DNA from: a bacterium | GTDB taxonomy: Bacteria > UBA8248 | Length of the DNA stretch: 64,000 bases | Assembly: GCA_965204535.1 (NCBI GenBank) | Contig: CBDBEV010000001.1 | Span: 1,184,001 to 1,248,000, forward strand | Reading direction: 5' to 3' | Shown: positions 43,735 through 53,745 of the stretch, in pieces | Position numbering within the stretch: position 1 is the stretch's first letter | Layout of the letters: every line of letters starts with the position of its first letter | Made by a program: the position numbers and the translations under genes | Notes under the pieces: model-generated | What the model saw: only the letters and a program-made list of their open reading frames with translations | What the model was told of the DNA's origin: nothing | Databases searched by the model: none

Positions 43735-44095
43735 ACCCCCCCTACCCCCCCTTGACAGGGGGGTATGAAAAGGCAACACCCGCCACCGATAGAGGAGCTT
43801 TTGTTCTTTCTTACCCCCCTGACAAGGGGGGGTAGGGGGGGTTGGTTTTCGGGGCGAGCGGGGAGAAGGGTTCGACGACCGAGCAGATATGGTTCACTCC
43901 CCCCTTGAGAACCAAGCCCGACCAAGCAGAGAAAGGATTCACTCCCCCCTTGAGGGGGAGTCGATGAAGCCGAGCGGTTTGTGCGAAGGCTGAATCGGTG
44001 GGGGGACGATTCTAAATTAAAAACTCCCCCCACCGAATCGCTTGCGGGCTTACGCCCTTAGCTCTTCGACTCCCCCTCAAGGGGGGAGTTGATCC
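43735..44095. repeat. REP-like doublet cluster (both poly-C/G families)
   Basis: Inverted CCCCCCTACCCCCCTTGACAGGGGGG doublet at 43735-43850; ACTCCCCCCTTGAGGGGGAGT doublet at about 43940-44090. Confidence 0.88.
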
Positions 44096-44180: not shown

Positions 44181-44669
44181 CTACTCGGGGTGAGAGGTAT
44201 CGGGCGGCGCGGCGGTGCGGCGGATGAGTTCCTTGAGCGCCTCCATGTTCTCGCGGTGCTGATCTTTGTGCTCCTCACGCTGGGTGGCGAGCGCGTTCAT
44301 GGTTTCGCGGTGGGTGCGCTCCATCGCTTCCATGGTTGCGCGGTGCTGATCTTTTTGATCCTCGCGCTGTGCGGCGAGGGCTTCCATGGTTGCGATGTGC
44401 TGCTCTTTTTGCGCCTCGCGCTCGGCGGCGAGCGCCTCCATGTGTTCGAGGTGGCGGGTGTCGAGCGCCTTCATGGTCTCGCGGTGCTGGGCGTCGCGGT
44501 GGCGCGCGGCCTGGCGCATGAAGTAGAGGCCGTAGGCGATGAGCGAACACTGCGCGGCCCCCACGAGCGCGGCGACCCACACCGAGGCCTGCTGCGCTAC
44601 GAGGGACGCCCTCTGGATGGCCAGGGATGCTTCCTGGATGGAGAGACTTGCGGCTTCGTATTCCGTCAT
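44181..44669 (-). CDS. Membrane-anchored coiled-coil protein with six HxxxMxAL repeats
   Basis: One TM segment followed by HRETMKAL, HLEHMEAL, HIATMEAL, HRATMEAM, HRETMNAL, HRENMEAL. Confidence 0.75.
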   Translation of the reverse strand: MTEYEAASLSIQEASLAIQRASLVAQQASVWVAALVGAAQCSLIAYGLYFMRQAARHRDAQHRETMKALDTRHLEHMEALAAEREAQKEQHIATMEALAAQREDQKDQHRATMEAMERTHRETMNALATQREEHKDQHRENMEALKELIRRTAAPPDTSHPE

Positions 44670-44764
44670 CTGGTTTTCCCCCACGTTAGTGGGTCCTCAT
44701 AGGCGTAACTCTAATGCGGCGGCGCGCGTTTCGTCAAGACGGATCCCGGCGGCGGGAACGAGGC

Positions 44765-45422: not shown

Positions 45423-47087
45423 CTACTGCTTGTTCACGCCGAAGGCGCCGACCATTCGGCCGCTCGTGCTGTACGTCGAGTGGAAAGTCCCGGTCCCGAC
45501 CTTCGGAACGCCACTAGTGCTGTCGTTGTCATAGAGAGCTCCGGACCACTGGCCGGCGGCGGCCGCGGCCGTCCCGTCGATGGTCCACTTCGTCATCTTT
45601 TCGTCAGTACCCGCGGTACCGGCACCATCGTCACCAAGAATTATCCCGGTATCACCAATGCCCTGCTTCATCAACTCGACGGACCAGTTCCGCGCCTCAC
45701 CGTCCGCCCCCATGAAGTTGTCGATGGTGCCCGTGATCATGTTGGCGTTGAAATCGGCTTCGAGCGTCGCCCGCGCGGTGAAGTGGCCGGCGTCGTTCGT
45801 TCCCCCGGTGGAGCTGTAAAGCGCGTACTTGCCCGCGGCGCCGCCCATGTAGGTCGCCGTCCCCCGCAGGTTCGTGATGCCGCTGGCGGCCGGGACGGTG
45901 CCCCTGGCCGTCGCGAAAGCGCTCGCGGTGAAGGTGTTGCCGTCCTCGGACTTGTGGATCCACCAGCCGTAGGAGGCATACACCGTGTCCGACGTGCTCA
46001 TGACCTTGGCGTTCGGGTCGGCGGGCTTGAAGGTCCAGGTGCCGCCGCCAAGCGTGAAGCCGTCTGCGGCCACCGTAGCCGAGCAAGCGTTGGTGTCGGT
46101 GGTGGGCGTACAACTGTAGGTGCCGGACACCCCGTGGTAGCTGCCGGAGATCATCTTGGCGACTTCGTTCGCGCCCTTCTTGAACACCTTCGTCCCGGCG
46201 GGCTGGTCGAAGCTCGGACTGTCGACTCTCCCCGCGACCGCTGCGTCTGACGTGTCGATGGCTAACGCCCCGTCCGTCAACTGATACTCGAAATCGCCGT
46301 CGGTTGTAACCGCTGCGGCGCTGCCGAACTTCTTCCCCTCCGTCGGGGCGCCGACGTTCGAGTAGACCATCGCCTCGTACATGCCGTCGTCGTCGGGCTC
46401 GGCCGTGTGCCTCTTGCCCGCCCAGCCGTGGTTGGCGGCGACCGGCGTCTTCTTGTCTTCCGCCAGTGCGACGGCGGTGGCCGTGCCGATCGTCACGCTG
46501 ATGACGCCGTCGGCGTCACTTGCGCCGGTTCGGATGTTGTCGGTATTGCCAAGGCCGTGCTCGAGGCCCTTGTACAGTTTACTGGCCGTCGCCATCATGG
46601 CCTTGTCGTCGGCCGTCTGCTTGGCGGCGATCGCCGCCATGCGGCTGGTCTTGGCGGAAGCAAGCTGACCCTCGAGCGTGGCGAGCGTTCCCTCGGCGGA
46701 GGCAACGTCGGTATCGCCTTCGGGAAGGTTTACCGCACCGTCGATCGCCGCCTTCAGATCGGCAACCGCGTCGTCGGCCGCCTTCACCTCAGCGTCGGTG
46801 GCGTCGTCGTCCACCATGCCCACCGCAGTCCGGGCCGCCGTCACGGCTTCCATGATCGCCGTGCGCTGCGCCGCTTGCAGTTCTGCAGCCGTGGTGCATG
46901 AGTTGTTGTCCGCATTCCACTGGCCGCCATCCGCCACGCACATCTCCTGCGGGGTCGGCATCGGCGTGTCATCCGGCGGCGTCGTCGCAGTGCCGCCACC
47001 GCCGCCGCAACCGGCCAGCGCAATGGCGAAGACCGCCGCCAGCGCGAAAGCGTAAAGCTTGTTTATCGGTTTCTCTCTGAACATCAT
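45423..47087 (-). CDS. Surface lipoprotein with a C-terminal TbpB-like (Slam-substrate-type) beta-barrel domain
   Basis: Lipobox LAGC-GGGGG, Ala-rich helical stalk, GTATYMGGAAGKY, LEADF..ITGTIDNF, GQWSG, final MVGAFGV; AGGAGG SD. Confidence 0.8.
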   Translation of the reverse strand: MMFREKPINKLYAFALAAVFAIALAGCGGGGGTATTPPDDTPMPTPQEMCVADGGQWNADNNSCTTAAELQAAQRTAIMEAVTAARTAVGMVDDDATDAEVKAADDAVADLKAAIDGAVNLPEGDTDVASAEGTLATLEGQLASAKTSRMAAIAAKQTADDKAMMATASKLYKGLEHGLGNTDNIRTGASDADGVISVTIGTATAVALAEDKKTPVAANHGWAGKRHTAEPDDDGMYEAMVYSNVGAPTEGKKFGSAAAVTTDGDFEYQLTDGALAIDTSDAAVAGRVDSPSFDQPAGTKVFKKGANEVAKMISGSYHGVSGTYSCTPTTDTNACSATVAADGFTLGGGTWTFKPADPNAKVMSTSDTVYASYGWWIHKSEDGNTFTASAFATARGTVPAASGITNLRGTATYMGGAAGKYALYSSTGGTNDAGHFTARATLEADFNANMITGTIDNFMGADGEARNWSVELMKQGIGDTGIILGDDGAGTAGTDEKMTKWTIDGTAAAAAGQWSGALYDNDSTSGVPKVGTGTFHSTYSTSGRMVGAFGVNKQ

Positions 47088-47804
47088 TTAGCGAGTCCTC
47101 CTGAATCAATAGAAAAAGGGATTTTCAGTGAATTTCCGGCTTTCTCCGATTTACCTCCTTTCGTCAGCTTTCATTTCGGGCCTTAAAATTCGGGTTTCTC
47201 TTCGTCTTTGGCGGACCGGAGAGCGGCGGCATCGGTGCCCCGCCGTCCGGTGCGTTTCAAAAACGATTCAGGAGGACTGGTCTTCCGGTGGGTTCCCCGC
47301 CTTCGGGTCAGGGGGGAGGGTCTTTTTTTTCGACGTCACCCGGTGGATGACTTCGCCTCGTGAATCGTGTCGCAAACTCGTCTGTCGCGCCGCAAACTTC
47401 GTGGTTCAAAAAGGTCTGTCAGCGCATCTGCGCTTCGTCCGGTGAGTCTCCTCTCTTTCGCCTGTATATACGGGCGGCCGTTACGCCGCTTGTGATCTTT
47501 CGCGCAGCGCCGGAGGCCGCAACCGGCCGACTTGCAGTCCGGGCTGGTTGCGACACAATCCACGAGGTATAGGTACTTGAGGTGGGTTCCCGCTTATTCC
47601 GGCTCTCCCGGCAGGAGGCCGTCTTGTATTCAGCGGGCAGCCCGAAGTCGACTGCGCCTCATGGACCGTGTCGCAACCATGATATTGCTACAGCCTTTTG
47701 CGGTTTGTCAAGGTGAATTTCCCGCCTGTTTCGACCTTCCGTGGGAAGGCCGCCTCGTGTAAGGCGTCAGCCGAGGCCTCTTCACCCCGCGGATTGTGTC
47801 GCAC
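47088..47804 (-). ncRNA. Putative long structured 5' leader / cis-regulatory RNA of the lipoprotein gene
   Basis: 14-nt perfect anti-SD (47265-47278) against the RBS (47094-47107); three 20-nt repeats (47785, 47657, 47356) and one anti-repeat (47548-47567) with G:U-only internal differences. Confidence 0.6.
47682..47711 (-). promoter_or_regulatory. Sigma70-like promoter TTGACA-N18-CAATAT (proximal)
   Basis: -35 at 47711-47706, -10 at 47687-47682; the predicted +1 coincides with the repeat starting at 47676. Confidence 0.6.
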
Positions 47805-47810
47805 GGGTTC

Positions 47811-47840
47811 ATATTGCGGGAATTGCAAAGTTTTTGTCAA
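47811..47840 (-). promoter_or_regulatory. Sigma70-like promoter TTGACA-N18-CAATAT (distal)
   Basis: -35 at 47840-47835, -10 at 47816-47811; the predicted +1 coincides with the repeat starting at 47804. Confidence 0.6.
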
Positions 47841-47894
47841 GACGCGTTTTTTTCGGGATGCAGAAGTTTCGAGGGGGGGTCTTTGTCAAAAGAG

Positions 47895-48015
47895 TAACCC
47901 CCCCTACCCCCCCTTGACAGGGGGGTAAGAAAAATCAAACCCCCTCAACCCGGCGGGGGTGTTGCTCTTTCAGTCGGGGGGTGTTGCCTTTTTCTTTTTT
48001 ATACCCCCCTGACAA
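47895..48015. repeat. REP doublet whose right palindrome is interrupted by IS copy B and continues at 49532-49562
   Basis: ATACCCCCCT-GACAA | IS | GACAA-GGGGGGGTAGGGGGGGTT. Confidence 0.85.
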
Positions 48016-49531
48016 GGGGCTGTTGAAAAACCCCTGGTTTTGTGATCGTATGGATGTATTCCCCCTCGCCCGAGATGGGAGTTCCGGAGATGTTGGACCG
48101 CAAGAGGCGCGAGCAGATGGACTTGTTCGTGGCCGGCCCGCTGGAGAAGTTGATTCCCGAAGATCACATATTGCGCCAGGTGGACCGCGTACTGGATTTG
48201 AGTTGGCTTCGCGAGGAAGTGGCGGAGTGCTATTGCGCGGACAACGGTCGACCGGGGATCGACCCGGAAGTGGTGATCCGGTTGATGCTGGCGGGCCTGC
48301 TGCTGGGCTACGCGGAGGATCGCCGCCTGCTGCGCGAGGCGCAGGCGCATCTGGCGGTCCGGTGGTTCATCGGGTACAGGCTGGACGAGGATTTGCCGGA
48401 TCATTCGAGCCTGACGCGTATCCGTCAACGCTGGGGGGAGGAGCGGTTCAAGGAGATATTTCGGCGCACGGTTCAGTCTTGCGTGGAGGCGAAGGTGGCG
48501 AAGGGAGAAGTGGTTCACATGGACGCGTCTTTGATACGCGCGGACGTGAGCTGGGAGAGTCTGGCGGAGCGCCACGCGGAGAAGGTGGTGCGGGAGAACG
48601 ACTCGGAGGATGAGACGGGGAAGAAGGGCGGCGGCGGGGGTTCGGGTCCGGTGAGCCGAACGGACCCCGACGCGCGCCTGGCGCGCAAGAGCGCTCGGGC
48701 GGGGTTCGAGCCGAGCTATAAGCACCACGCGGTGGTGGACGACGAGCGTGGGGTGGTTCTCGACGTAGAGGTGACGGAGGGGACGTTGAACGAGCGGGAG
48801 ATGATGGAGCCGCAGTTGGATGCGGTTTGCGAGCTCACGGGTCGCGCGCCCGCGGTGGTGACGGCGGATAGTGGTTATGCGTATTCGAAGGTGTACGGCG
48901 CATTGGAGCGTCGGGGGGTCGCCGCGCTGATACCGGCGAAGAAGGAACCCACCCAGAGCCGGGTGCCGTTGCAACTGTTCCGCTACGACGAGCGGAATGA
49001 GGTGGTGAAGTGTCCGGGGGGCAAGACGCTGCGCCCCCGGAAGGAGACGGAGCGGGGGCGCTGGTATGTATCGAGGACCCGCGATTGCGCGGGTTGCGCG
49101 CTCAAGGCCGATTGTCTGTCGGCGTCTCGCACGAGCAGGGCGGTTCTGATTCCGCACGAGTATCCGGCGCTGTTGCGCGCGCGCCGTCGCCACGCGCGCC
49201 GGGGGGAGGAGGAGGGCCGGCTGTGGCGCCGCCACATGTCGCGTTCGGAGGGCTATCACGGCGAGGCGAAGAGTCGGCACGGACTGGCGCGGGCGGTACG
49301 CCGGGGTCTTGCGAACGTGAAGATCCAGGCCTACCTGACGGCGACTGCGGTGAACCTCAAGCGGCTCGCCGCCGCTGTGGCCGCGGGTTTATTCGCTCTG
49401 TGGCGGGCCTGGGCCGCCCGGAAACGCCGAATGAGCGCATATCGCGGCCTCACGCGCCGATTGGGCTTCCTCTCCCAGGCCGCGTGAGCCGCCATACATC
49501 CCGCTTCAAAACGAGGTTTTTCAACAGCCCC
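48016..49531 (+). mobile_element. IS1182-family insertion sequence, copy B
   Basis: IRs GGGGCTGTTGAAAAACC; 5-bp duplication GACAA (48011-48015, 49532-49536). Confidence 0.92.
48042..49487 (+). CDS. IS1182-family DDE transposase
   Basis: Nearly identical to 20412..21851 (a few substitutions, two extra Gly). Confidence 0.92.
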   Translation: MIVWMYSPSPEMGVPEMLDRKRREQMDLFVAGPLEKLIPEDHILRQVDRVLDLSWLREEVAECYCADNGRPGIDPEVVIRLMLAGLLLGYAEDRRLLREAQAHLAVRWFIGYRLDEDLPDHSSLTRIRQRWGEERFKEIFRRTVQSCVEAKVAKGEVVHMDASLIRADVSWESLAERHAEKVVRENDSEDETGKKGGGGGSGPVSRTDPDARLARKSARAGFEPSYKHHAVVDDERGVVLDVEVTEGTLNEREMMEPQLDAVCELTGRAPAVVTADSGYAYSKVYGALERRGVAALIPAKKEPTQSRVPLQLFRYDERNEVVKCPGGKTLRPRKETERGRWYVSRTRDCAGCALKADCLSASRTSRAVLIPHEYPALLRARRRHARRGEEEGRLWRRHMSRSEGYHGEAKSRHGLARAVRRGLANVKIQAYLTATAVNLKRLAAAVAAGLFALWRAWAARKRRMSAYRGLTRRLGFLSQAA

Positions 49532-49577
49532 GACAAGGGGGGGTAGGGGGGGTTGGTTTTTCCAGGGCGAGGCCGAT

Positions 49578-49967
49578 TCAGCGGGTTCGCATATCCGAAA
49601 CGCGTTTTTGCAGATCGACGTACACCCCTTCGACGTTGCCCATGACATCGGCGTTGGCGTACCGGACGACCTCGACGCCGAGGGCGTTCAGCCTGCGCGT
49701 CCTGGCTTCGTCGTATCGTCCGCGCGCGTCGTGGCTGTCGCCGTCGATCTCGATCGCCAGCATTAGTTCGGCGCAGTAGAAATCGACGATGTAGCGGTCC
49801 AGCGGCTTCTGGCGGGTGAATTTCAGTCCGGACAGGCGTCTGTCCCGCAATACCTCGAACCACAGCTTGTTCTCCGCCGGGGTGGGGTGCCTGCGGTTTT
49901 CCCGCGCCTTTTCTGTCAGCGCTTCGTCGTATGGAACGTGGCCCCCCGCGCCGCTCTTTCTCAACAA
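49578..49967 (-). CDS. DUF559 (Vsr-like PD-(D/E)xK) endonuclease-domain protein
   Basis: ARENRRHPTPAENKLW, KFTRQKP, YIVDFYC, AIEIDGDSH, D..RT..L...GVEVVRY.N. Confidence 0.9.
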   Translation of the reverse strand: MLRKSGAGGHVPYDEALTEKARENRRHPTPAENKLWFEVLRDRRLSGLKFTRQKPLDRYIVDFYCAELMLAIEIDGDSHDARGRYDEARTRRLNALGVEVVRYANADVMGNVEGVYVDLQKRVSDMRTR

Positions 49968-49984
49968 ATCGCCTCCTTTTCCGA

Positions 49985-50260
49985 ACCAACCCCCTTAACA
50001 GCAACCCCTCTTGTCAGGGGATAAAGGCAACCCCCCCTACCCCCCCTTGTCAGGGGGGTAAGAAAAATCAAACCCCCCTCAGCCCGGCGCGGGGTGTTGC
50101 TCTTTCAGTCGGGGGGTGTTGCTTTTTTCTTTTTCATACCCCCCTCGCCATGAACCTCCTCGTCGGGGTCTTGCCTTTTTATACCCCCCTGTCAAGGGGG
50201 GGTAGGGGGGGTTGCTTTTCCGAGGTCGGCCTTGCCGAACCCCCCAACCCCCCTTATCAG
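49985..50260. repeat. REP-like cluster (CCCCCCTACCCCCCTTGTCAGGGGGG family) upstream of DUF559
   Basis: Several palindromes; 50030-50140 closely repeats 47895-48010, and 50091-50213 closely repeats 53611-53735. Confidence 0.85.
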
Positions 50261-50941
50261 GGGGCTGTTGAAAAACCCCGTTTTGAAGCGGGAGGTATGG
50301 CGGCTCACGCGGCTTGGGAGAGGAAGCCCAATCGGCGCGTGAGGCCGCGATATGCGCTCATTCGGCGTCTCCGGGCGGCGCAGGCCCTCCACAGAGCGAA
50401 TATACCCGCCGCAAAAGCGGCGGCCAGCCGCTTGAGGTTCACCGCAGTCGCCGTCAGGTAGGCCTGGATCCTCATGTTCGCAAGGCCCCGGCGCACCGCC
50501 CGCCCCAGTCCGTGCCGACTCTTCGCCTCGCCGTGGTAACCCTCCGAACGCGACATGTGGCGGCGCCACAGCCGGCCCTCCTCCTCCCCCCGGCGCGCGT
50601 GGCGGCGGCGCGCGCGCAACAGCGCCGGATATTCATGCGGAATCAGCACCGTCCTGCTCGTGTGCGACTTGGGAAGACAATCCGACCTCAGCGCGCAGCC
50701 CGCGCAATCGCGCGTCCTCGAACCATAGTAGCGCCCCCGCTCCGTCTCCTTCCGGGGACGCAGCGTCTTGCCGCCCGGACACTTCACCACCTTGTGCCGC
50801 TCGTCGTAGCGGAACAACTGCAGCGGAACACGGCTCTGGGAAGGCTCCTTCTTCGCCGGAATCACCGCGTCCACCCCCCGACGCTCCAATCCCGCATACA
50901 CCTTCGAATACGCATAGCCCGAATCCGCCGTCACCACCGCG

Positions 50942-52723
50942 GAGACTGTGAGAGTATTGGATTTCACAGTCTCCGGAACAGGGCTCGCTTACGCTTGCAG
51001 CCCGATGGCCGGACACTGTCTTCAACTTCGGGAGCAACAACACCGCAGAGCCGGGAGAGAAACGTCTCGGCGGCCGGTCAGCTCGGGGTCGCGGTCAAGT
51101 CCTCGAAGAATCGGCTTCAAGTTCACACGCCATTCGTCCCCAACCGCTGTTTTTGCAGACAATGCTCCACAAATGCAGCTCCGCCCAGCACACGCATGAC
51201 CCGCTTGAAGTTGTAACCCAGCGTCATCAGGCTGAATTCGCCGCGGCATTTGCCGAGTCCGCGCATCACAAAATGATCCATCCCCGCCCAGCGCTTGATC
51301 GTACCGAATGGATGTTCGACGAGTGTGCTTCGCCCGCGCATCAATGGCACACGGGCGTTCATCTTCTTGCGATGCCGGTCCACCACGTCCTCATGCTCCC
51401 AGCGTTGTATCCTGCGCGTCGATCTCGACTTTGTCAGGCATCGGCCCGACAACGAACAGTCCCGGCAAACCGCCGCCGTCCCGCGATAAAAGTAATACAG
51501 CCTGCCCCTGACGGTGGTCGTGCCGCCTCGAACCAGACGCTCTCCGGCCGGACAGACATACGTGTCATCCTGCGCATCGTAACGGAATTCATCGCTGCCG
51601 AATCGTCCGTCCTTGCCCTTGCGGGCCGTCTGGTTCGGTATCGGAACATACACCTCCATTCCCTTGTCTTCGCAACTCTTCAACTGTGCGCCGTTGAAGT
51701 AGCCCGAATCCGCCAGGCCGACCAGGCGTTCGCTGCCCATGGCTTCGCCGGCTTTCGTCATCATCGGCTCCAACTGAGCGGAGTCATTGCCGTCCTGCAC
51801 CACATCCTCCGCGACAATCAGCTTGTGCTTGTCGTCCACCGCGATCTGGCAGTTGTATCCGCCCACCATTATATCGCCGTTCCTCAGAAGTCGAGCATCT
51901 GCATCGACCCCCGATACCTGACGCTCTCCGCTTTCCTGCAAATGCTCTTGCAGTGCCTTCTTCTTTTGTTGCCTCTCGATCAAGGCCTTGAGCTTCACCG
52001 GCAGGTCCGGATCCTCCGAACCGTCCCCACACTCCTCCCCGCGCGCATCCGCCTCGTCCAACTGCCGGTGATACGCCGCAATCCTCTTCTCCAAACGCCT
52101 CAGGTCCCTTGCCAGGGACCGCTTGGTTTGGAAGCTGTCCAGGTTCGCATCGGCCTTCAAAAAAGTCCCGTCGACCGCCACCCGGCTGCCGCCCAGCAGC
52201 GAGAGTTCGCGGCACAGCAGCACGAACTCCCGGTTGGCCTCCTGCAGCGCAGCCACATTGTTCTTGCGAAAATCCGCAATCGTCTTGTAGCTCGGCGTCG
52301 CACCCTGGCACAGCCAGATCACTTCCAGATTGCGCCGCGTCTCCGCTTCGAGACGGCGCGAACTCCGTACCCGGTGCTGGTAGCCGTACAGATACAGCTT
52401 CAGCAGCAGCGCCGGGTCGAAAGCCGGCTGACCGGCGCCGCAGTTCGCTTCGGCATGCGCGAACCCCAGCGCCTCCAGGTCCAGCGTGCCGACGAACGCA
52501 TCGATCGCGCGCACCGCATTGTGCTCGGACACGTAGTCGTCCAGACACGGCGGAAGCAGCATCATCTGGCTTCGGGACTGCACCTCCTGATAACGTCTCT
52601 CGGACATGGTGGTGACCCTTTATGTGGTTATCTCACTCACCGGTAAAGATAGCATGTACAGACAACCCGGGCATCGCTCGCCAGCGTCACCCACCAGAAT
52701 CGTGGGAATACTTTCACAGTCTC
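50942..52723 (-). mobile_element. Second, distinct IS1182-family element nested in copy C
   Basis: IRs GAGACTGTGAGAGTATT / AATACTTTCACAGTCTC; 10-bp duplication CACCACCGCG (50932-50941, 52724-52733). Confidence 0.92.
51123..52607 (-). CDS. IS1182-family transposase (494 aa, intact)
   Basis: GQPAFDPALLLKLYLYGY, SSRRLE, PSYKTIADFRK, VDGT, GYNCQ, LADSGY, YVCPAG, VEHPFGTIK. Confidence 0.93.
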   Translation of the reverse strand: MSERRYQEVQSRSQMMLLPPCLDDYVSEHNAVRAIDAFVGTLDLEALGFAHAEANCGAGQPAFDPALLLKLYLYGYQHRVRSSRRLEAETRRNLEVIWLCQGATPSYKTIADFRKNNVAALQEANREFVLLCRELSLLGGSRVAVDGTFLKADANLDSFQTKRSLARDLRRLEKRIAAYHRQLDEADARGEECGDGSEDPDLPVKLKALIERQQKKKALQEHLQESGERQVSGVDADARLLRNGDIMVGGYNCQIAVDDKHKLIVAEDVVQDGNDSAQLEPMMTKAGEAMGSERLVGLADSGYFNGAQLKSCEDKGMEVYVPIPNQTARKGKDGRFGSDEFRYDAQDDTYVCPAGERLVRGGTTTVRGRLYYFYRGTAAVCRDCSLSGRCLTKSRSTRRIQRWEHEDVVDRHRKKMNARVPLMRGRSTLVEHPFGTIKRWAGMDHFVMRGLGKCRGEFSLMTLGYNFKRVMRVLGGAAFVEHCLQKQRLGTNGV

Positions 52724-53568
52724 CACCACCGCGGGCGCGCGACCCGTGAGCTCGCAAACCGCATCCAGCTGCGGCTCCATCATCTCCCGCTCGTTCAACG
52801 TCCCCGCCGTCACCTCTACGTCGAGGACAACGCCCCGCTCGTCGTCCACCACCGCGTGGTGCTTGTAGCTCGGCTCGAACCCCGCCCGAGCGCTCTTGCG
52901 CGCCAGGCGCGCGTCGGGGTCCGTTCGGCTCACCGGACCCGAACCCCCGCCGCCGCCCTTCTTCCCCGCCTCATCCGCCGAGTCGTTCTCCCGCACCACC
53001 TTCTCCGCGTGGCGCGCCGCCAGACTCTCCCAGCTCACGTCCGCACGTATCAAAGACGCGTCCATGTGAACCACTTCCCCCTTCGCCACCTGCGCCTCCA
53101 GGCACGCCTGAACCGTGCGGCGCAATATCTCCTTGAACCGCGCCTCCCCCCAGCGCTGGCGAATCCGCGTCAGGCTTGAATGATCCGGCAACTCCTCGTG
53201 CAGCTCGTAACCGATGAACCACCGGATCGCCAGGTTCACCTGCGCCTCGCGAAGCAGATGCCGGTCGTGCACGTGGCCCAGCAGCAGGCCCGCCAGCATC
53301 AACCGCACCACCACTTCCGGGTCGATCCCCGGTCGACCGTTGTCCGCGCAATAGCACCCCGCCACTTCCTCGCGCAGCCAGCTCAAATCCAGTACGCGGT
53401 TCACCCGGAACAATATGTAATCTTCGGGAATCAACTGCTCCAGCGAACCGGCCACGAACAATTCCATCTGCCCGCGCCTCTTGCGGTCCAACATCGGGGA
53501 ATCTCCCATCTCGGGCGAGGGGGGATAACTCCATACGATCACAAAACCAGGGGTTTTTCAACAGGCCC

Positions 53569-53745
53569 TATCAGGGGGGCCTTTTTTTTCTTTTCTTACC
53601 CCCCCTTGCCGGGGTGTTGCTCTTTCAGTCGGGGGGTGTTGCCTTTTTCTTTTTCATGCCCCCCCTCGCCATGAACCTCCTCGTCGGGGTCTTGCCTTTT
53701 TATACCCCCCTGTCAAGGGGGGGGTAGGGGGGGTTCGTTTTTGAA
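53569..53745. repeat. REP-like cluster
   Basis: Remainder of the palindrome targeted by IS copy C, plus a unit of about 125 bp duplicated from 50091-50213. Confidence 0.8.

Follow-up and report, generated by a model that had tools for sequence, protein, structure and literature searches.

The window, that is, the whole stretch of 64,000 nucleotides that was analysed, contains a small DUF559 gene surrounded by dispersed repeats and insertion sequences. The features of this locus are listed below. The type A repeats and the two halves of the repeat split by the first insertion were delimited on the sequence, the first insertion element was assigned by an NF033551 match above cut-off, and the DUF559 gene was assigned by Pfam, a structure model, Foldseek and residue conservation.

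47898-47925, plus strand: left-hand repeat of the downstream doublet, a type A triplex motif
47926-48003, no strand: spacer of the downstream doublet (94% identity with that at 50059-50138)
48004-48015, minus strand: left half of the IS-split repeat (C6 arm and loop)
48016-49531, plus strand: IS1182-family element in the hairpin loop, with a 5-bp duplication, GACAA
48042-49487: transposase of the first IS1182 element
49532-49552, minus strand: right half of the IS-split repeat (duplicated loop, G7, TA, G7)
49578-49967, minus strand: DUF559 gene, 129 aa, predicted Vsr-like fold
49986-50020, plus strand: half-copy and degenerate hairpin, immediately upstream of the DUF559 start codon
50031-50058, plus strand: intact type A repeat, the nearest upstream (64 bp), third tract toward the gene
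50184-50211, minus strand: type A repeat that closes the upstream doublet
50240-50260, plus strand: type A repeat split by the second IS1182 copy
50261-53568: second IS1182 copy, itself broken by other IS DNA
53569-53735: other half of the repeat at 50240-50260 and a third spacer copy

The initial annotation placed a palindromic repeat about 20 bp from both the stop and the start codon of the DUF559 gene. This holds for half-copies: the right half at 49532-49552, with its third tract toward the gene, lies 25 bp from the stop codon, and a half-copy lies 23 bp upstream of the start codon, followed by a degenerate hairpin at 38 bp. It does not hold for intact repeats, the first of which is found 64 bp upstream. 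The first IS1182 element cuts its repeat at the loop and is bordered by the GACAA duplication. Without this element, the layout becomes doublet-gene-doublet. The two flanking doublets are 94.9% identical over 117 bp, in agreement with the earlier description of near-identical units of about 115 bp framing the gene, but the unit exists in a third local copy, with its spacer at about 53608-53704, beyond the second IS. In addition, the doublets that flank the cassettes of relatives do not have spacers common to both. Consequently, the 117-bp identity is attributed to local duplication, and the 115-bp direct repeat was rejected as an integration signature, being one of three local copies and absent in relatives. 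The DUF559 site holds three IS elements. A composite transposon of the type IS-gene-IS was also rejected, since each IS has a separate target duplication and the cassettes of relatives occur without these IS. Contigs from two sequencing runs of one study matched positions 49533-50038 without difference; none of them spans the DUF559 locus, and their joints stem from repeats elsewhere.

The reading frame at 49578-49967 belongs to the DUF559 family (PF04480; 108.5 bits against a cut-off of 20.6 in a Pfam profile search). The gene is single-copy, no second DUF559 match having been found in the 4.56-Mb genome. The predicted model of the protein (pLDDT 88.6) is matched by Foldseek to a Neisseria structure (3hrl, E 4e-8) and to the Vsr-like homing endonuclease I-Bth0305I (3r3p, E 4e-4), which together with the Pfam score agrees with the Vsr-like fold originally named. 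The putative catalytic residues are D62, E73, D75 and H79, conserved in 89, 86, 88 and 88 of 89 aligned relatives, respectively. By comparison with published work (PMC3239194), their retention suggests an active nuclease. The protein scores 70.9 bits against the YcjD equivalog NF007294, below the curated cut-off of 218, and is a relative of YcjD, not an orthologue. Pfam gave neither a Y1_Tnp match nor a GIY-YIG domain in this protein. The predicted fold and the D...E-x-D-G-x-x-H pattern are common to Vsr, VsrA and I-Bth0305I (PMC12907096, PMC3239194). Unlike Vsr and the EDxHD enzymes, however, the gene is a free-standing frame of 129 aa that is framed by repeats, is not located in an intron or intein, shows no linked cytosine methyltransferase by motif, and encodes no separate N-terminal DNA-binding region.

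The type A repeat reads, on its G-rich strand, C6, a 6-nt loop, G7, TA and G7. It is therefore not the simple palindrome initially described, but a hairpin (stems C6-7/G6-7, loop of TGACAA type) with a third homopurine tract, a mirror G-tract, as in the known BoxC/triplex class. By its predicted architecture the repeat is a BoxC/PIT/TM class II intrastrand-triplex motif, not a GTAG REP. The plan common to BoxC, PIT and TM(ECO) motifs comprises a pyrimidine arm, a loop of 3-6 nt, a purine arm, a short loop and a third purine tract, and BoxC and type A repeats are both intergenic, dispersed and arranged in inverted pairs (PMC4666352). The type A repeat differs from TM(ECO) in its pure C/G stems, its TGACAA-type loop and its copy number (295 versus 23); since the TM(ECO) consensus has T/A inside the stems, the two are assigned to the same class but to different subtypes (PMC4666352). 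In GTAG REPs, the GTAG stands at the 5' foot of the hairpin (PMC3733652), whereas on the G-rich strand of the type A repeat it comes after the hairpin, on the 3' side, within loop 2 and the third tract, and the GTAG matches beside A genes are the tail of the type A repeat itself.

The abundance of the repeat was described correctly from the outset. At least 15 intergenic recurrences had been reported for the window and 19 elements were counted there, with 295 in the genome and none in a 1.5-Mb order-4 Markov control. The inverted doublets that had been noted as the usual arrangement account for 92 of 179 clusters genome-wide. Just seven of the 295 copies lie well inside reading frames longer than 200 aa, which make up 74% of the genome. 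ViennaRNA predicts the hairpin only (-7.9/-8.8 kcal/mol, z about -1.1/-1.2, not exceptional), and a structured RNA was rejected, as no Rfam match was obtained in the 64,000-nt window. The orientation of the third tract can be read in relatives with asymmetric stems (off-centre A), the pure-G stems of this genome being unable to discriminate. In 53 such hairpins, chosen without a mirror criterion, the tract is mirror in 34 and parallel in 9, with 10 ties.

The association between gene and repeat was followed in 79 GTDB loci, taken from the best 80 of at least 589 matches; consequently, close relatives are over-represented. A triplex-type motif was found within 200 bp upstream of the DUF559 gene at 47 of 76 loci and within 200 bp downstream at 43 of 74. 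At least one side carries the motif at 58 of 71 scorable loci and both sides at 29, compared with 18 and 1 among 271 other reading frames of the same loci. The enrichment near DUF559 genes that the initial annotation had asked about is thus present, and the outcome it had named as contrary, DUF559 genes no more flanked than others, is the opposite of what was found. In 41 of 49 cases upstream and in 40 of 46 downstream, the third tract points toward the gene, and the upstream repeat of many close relatives is part of the reading frame and encodes the DUF559 N-terminus. In Escherichia coli, the DUF559 gene ycjD is followed by a motif at a distance of 168 bp, its 3' end bears a degenerate hairpin, and no motif was detected on the upstream side.

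Several of these genes reside in other genes. Thirteen of the 79 DUF559 matches lie within reading frames longer than 300 aa, and 10 of the 13 are flanked by the motif; the hosts (12 of 13 scanned) include methyltransferase, HsdS, peptidase and other genes. At L203, L204, L205, L036, L038, L040 and L041, a repeat-bounded DUF559 cassette sits in frame in N6/N4 DNA methyltransferase genes. L203-L205 have a common insertion point, L041 is the same locus as L203, and methyltransferase-hosted cassettes occur in several phyla. One locus carries four tandem DUF559 copies. Gene and inward-facing repeats thus form a small cassette that occupies many chromosomal sites.

A tree of 89 proteins was built by a quick method that left many forks open, using only the conserved core, so that repeat-encoded N-terminal residues were excluded; L066 and L081 were left out for stops. 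On this tree, the loop subtype requires 5 changes against a shuffled mean of 29.6 and is found in 12 phyla, whereas host phylum requires 39 changes for 25 states. No motif was seen by the detector used in 14 of the 89 rows. These figures show that gene and repeat travel together; simple co-transfer, without either acting on the other, would give the same clustering on the tree and the same matching of subtypes.

Within the genus, two DUF559 subfamilies, A and B, are 38-40% identical. Type B is a longer repeat related to type A, in which a long loop 2 of about 35 nt, capable of pairing internally, separates the hairpin from the third tract; it was seen at L009-L013, L021 and L007 and at 43942-44090 of the window. 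For A genes (n = 5), all 9 scorable sides have type A as the nearest repeat; for B genes (n = 7), type B is nearest on 12 of the 14 sides, both samples being drawn from the genus plus one class relative. For the 15 GIY-YIG genes of the genus, the nearest repeat is a CGTC hairpin on 29 of 30 sides, or 30 of 38 when four outside loci are added, and none of these sides has a type A or B repeat nearest. Every genome with an A or B gene, among the 23 of the genus, carries both repeat families. Of the system that the initial annotation had suggested, the linkage of gene and repeat is supported, and in a more specific form, with repeat subtype following protein subfamily. As far as sequence comparison can establish it, the gene-repeat pairing is real, widespread and subtype-specific.

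The sites themselves turn over. A cassettes occupy four different sites in the genus, as do B cassettes, and intergenic sites gather all four repeat families. At the orthologous intergenic site in 10 relatives, three have a B cassette and seven have no DUF559 gene, with assorted repeats or none instead. In G032, a B cassette lies in frame within an 881-aa reading frame resembling a type I specificity subunit.

Two known systems offer points of comparison. RAYTs are HUH/Y1 enzymes, which are able to cut and rejoin DNA. Like a RAYT/TnpA-REP gene, the DUF559 gene is single-copy and lies within inverted repeats of a multicopy doublet family (PMC3733652), so the original analogy with RAYT and REP is sound, yet the Ssn/NTS system is the closer published precedent (PMC11893778). 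Ssn nucleases cleave close to the hairpin beside their own gene; such flanking is seen on one side in 71% and on both sides in 42% (PMC11893778). Shared with Ssn/NTS/SRM are a small single-domain nuclease gene, oriented dispersed hairpins, subtype-specific pairs and similar flanking rates; the difference is that Ssn combines GIY-YIG with a plain hairpin, and here a Vsr-like PD-(D/E)xK protein is combined with a hairpin bearing a third tract (PMC11893778). Activity has been demonstrated for Ssn (PMC11893778) and is predicted for DUF559. The DUF559-repeat pairing works like RAYT/REP and especially like Ssn/NTS, but it is a member of neither, as the protein lacks the folds that define them. In the same genome, a stand-alone GIY-YIG gene (L003:1414-1734, minus strand) lies between inverted CGTC hairpins in the Ssn/SRM layout, and the sole RAYT-like Y1_Tnp gene (L002:1500-2050) lies amid GTAG repeats, some of them inside the reading frame. 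Thus, RAYT-, Ssn- and DUF559-type systems, each with its own repeats, coexist in one genome. A RAYT as mover of the type A repeat was rejected, because the only Y1_Tnp match is located among GTAG repeats and the nearest type A copy is about 1.4 kb away.

The relevant papers do not join the two partners. Holder et al. 2015 name no partner enzyme, report that no link to mobile elements was found and that triplex folds could not be demonstrated in vivo, and, in the main text, make no mention of ycjD (PMC4666352). The main text of Chenal et al. 2025 mentions neither DUF559 nor triplex (PMC11893778). Searches of openly accessible main texts, which can overlook papers, gave no publication that connects DUF559 or ycjD with BoxC-type repeats.

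The best reading of these observations is that DUF559 and its type-matched repeat would constitute a third nuclease-repeat system, alongside RAYT/REP and Ssn/NTS. It is considered likely that the protein is its repeat's partner, whether or not it also spreads the repeat. The specific mechanism favoured here is held tentatively, at slightly less than an even chance: the Vsr-fold protein would read its own repeat subtype and nick beside it, and host repair would spread the repeats and, rarely, the cassette. The protein would recognise its repeat in single-stranded or locally unwound DNA, and the nick made beside it could be followed by host repair and recombination that copy the repeat or, more rarely, the whole cassette. 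Recombination between the flanking doublets could delete the gene and leave the repeats behind. We infer binding, nicking, copying and the role of nicking in spread from the patterns described above. PD-(D/E)xK enzymes do not become covalently joined to DNA. Consequently, DUF559 cannot rejoin strands as a RAYT does, and any repeat copying must rely on host functions.

The correlation of copy number with gene presence that the initial annotation had asked for was found in two samples, although it is loose. The A gene is present in 5 of 23 genus genomes, all with 102-264 type A cores (copy counts across genomes use a hairpin-core pattern, which gives 264 type A cores in this genome). The 18 genomes without it have no cores (six), 6-64 (nine), or 168, 387 and 563. 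The two richest relatives thus lack the A gene: G012 has 563 type A cores and no DUF559 match, and G016 has 387 and only a B subfamily gene. The B gene, likewise present in 5 of 23, is accompanied by 85-136 type B cores, and genomes without it have 0-110; the present genome belongs to the latter, with 110 type B cores and no detected B gene. Repeat load is all-or-none within the genus: G001, G007, G009, G010, G015 and G019 have no type A or B cores, and three of these six were checked and have no IS1182-type ends.

In 121 genomes of another phylum, at least 10 cores occur in 12 of 14 genomes with a full close homologue (median 61.5). The figure is 26 of 87 (median 1) where no DUF559 match exists and 2 of 14 where all matches are distant; kin among these genomes are not independent, and P-values overstate the difference. 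With the five seed genomes removed, the proportions are 11 of 15 (fragments included) and 28 of 101. Ten of the 87 gene-free genomes have at least 50 cores, and one full-gene genome has none. Among 50 of the 79 locus genomes, a sample picked partly by flank type and hence biased, more than four cores occur in 17 of 26 with close homologues and in 2 of 24 with distant ones; the counts for L035 equal those of G020 and are not independent. Of the 26 close-homologue genomes, seven have only 1-4 cores, about the number of the cassette itself, and two have none by pattern. The DUF559 gene therefore predicts repeats, and repeats are often present without the gene. Gene loss, incomplete assemblies or another mover could account for the latter.

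The IS1182 family provides a second carrier. Without exception, its 24 full-length copies border on the loop of an A or B hairpin (11 in A, 12 in B and 1 mixed), mostly with 4-6 bp duplications. IS1272 is likewise an IS1182-family element that targets stem-loops, but it replaces its target without duplication, whereas loop insertion with duplication of 4-6 bp is seen in most copies here (PMC5678879). Some copies have mismatched flanks, which suggests recombination between copies. In addition, 49 short (<600 bp) MITE-like units have IS1182-type ends and unrelated interiors, mostly one doublet of type A, type B, GTAG or CGTC repeats, some with loop duplication. Examples are C1:3341-3593 and C2:1450309-1450483, and at one orthologous site the same IS1182-type ends enclose other contents in G002.

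These elements are central to the strongest alternative, in which DUF559 is a cognate nuclease that does not spread its repeat. It would cut incoming or exposed single-stranded DNA at repeats and modulate recombination, as SsnA does in Neisseria, while the repeats multiply through IS1182-ended units, local duplication and gene conversion. The linkage and specificity data also fit this explanation, and SsnA reduces the integration of NTS-carrying DNA, a role in repeat expansion being only a hypothesis there (PMC11893778). The 49 units carry doublets of four repeat families, the doublet spacer at the locus is locally triplicated, and the repeat-rich genomes without the A gene, G012 and G016, have 281 and 199 IS1182-type ends. 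The position of these two genomes, together with IS1182 as a second carrier, argues against spread driven by DUF559. On the other hand, copy number follows gene presence in both samples, the MITE-like units hold just 26 of the 264 type A cores, leaving about 90% outside, and three other-phylum genomes with the gene and 104-353 type A cores have only 0-3 such ends. IS carriage thus contributes in the genus without being required everywhere. A comparison over 800 kb of G002 (8 and 7 comparable clusters) gave no clean empty/filled junction. In 5 and 3 of these clusters the other genome has no type A core; since the compared sites were refilled with other repeats, no insertion signature is readable. 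On balance, a cognate nuclease that does not spread its repeat is rated unlikely, though well within serious consideration.

A further explanation assigns the protein a job independent of the repeat, such as very-short-patch-like mismatch nicking of the kind attributed to VsrA, with the repeats as co-travelling recombinogenic handles and the subtype match reflecting shared cassette descent. The Vsr-like fold is in keeping with this, and several in-frame hosts are restriction-modification genes. Caulobacter VsrA, the only DUF559 protein for which a genetic phenotype is known to us, has been interpreted as a nuclease of mismatch repair; it carries DUF559 and induces SOS when the cytosine methyltransferase is missing, to which it is not genetically linked (PMC12907096). 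Holder et al. also tie triplex motifs to local rearrangement (PMC4666352). No C5-methyltransferase motif was detected in any of the 79 DUF559 loci, and the sole match of the genome is about 1.29 Mb from the gene; the motif pattern used is of limited sensitivity, and the unlinked VsrA softens this argument further. Handles without function should decay or be swapped, but both subtype and orientation are maintained in 12 phyla, and the third tract has retained its mirror symmetry (34 mirror, 9 parallel, 10 ties). Mismatch nicking with passive repeats is consequently judged quite improbable. Chance, that is, an accessory gene landing in an intergenic hot spot of repeats and IS, is very improbable and largely refuted: the site does hold three IS, relatives have different repeats there and 208 of 3796 reading frames of this genome border a type A repeat on one or both sides, but only 26 of 3796 have it on both sides (including 14 other reading frames and 11 IS transposases), the association recurs across phyla, and each nuclease family keeps its own repeat family though all are present.

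Although BoxC/triplex repeats have been on record since the 1990s, we know of no partner protein for them, nor of a defined substrate for the large DUF559/YcjD family. The pairing offers the former a candidate partner and the latter a candidate substrate, both directly testable. The genus provides a specificity matrix, with two subfamilies and two repeat types in the same genomes and RAYT- and Ssn-type controls alongside. If the protein reads an intrastrand triplex, this would be biological evidence for such folds in cells, and if the pairing is as proposed, a new set of site-specific single-strand cutters may become available. A much broader generalisation would treat DUF559 proteins as widespread structure-specific nucleases that read a three-stranded DNA fold and that, with BoxC-type repeats, form a third self-propagating class, spreading by transposase-free nick and repair, with subfamilies competing for sites under their own repeat codes; this is considered somewhat unlikely.

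Two neighbouring features of the window were also recorded. A lipoprotein-like reading frame of 554 aa at 45423-47087 (minus strand) has no Pfam match; its ends and the long non-coding region upstream (46900-47850), which has no Rfam match, recur many times in the genus. A small reading frame at 44181-44684 (minus strand), also with no Pfam match, encodes repeated short helical units and lies between type B and type A doublets.
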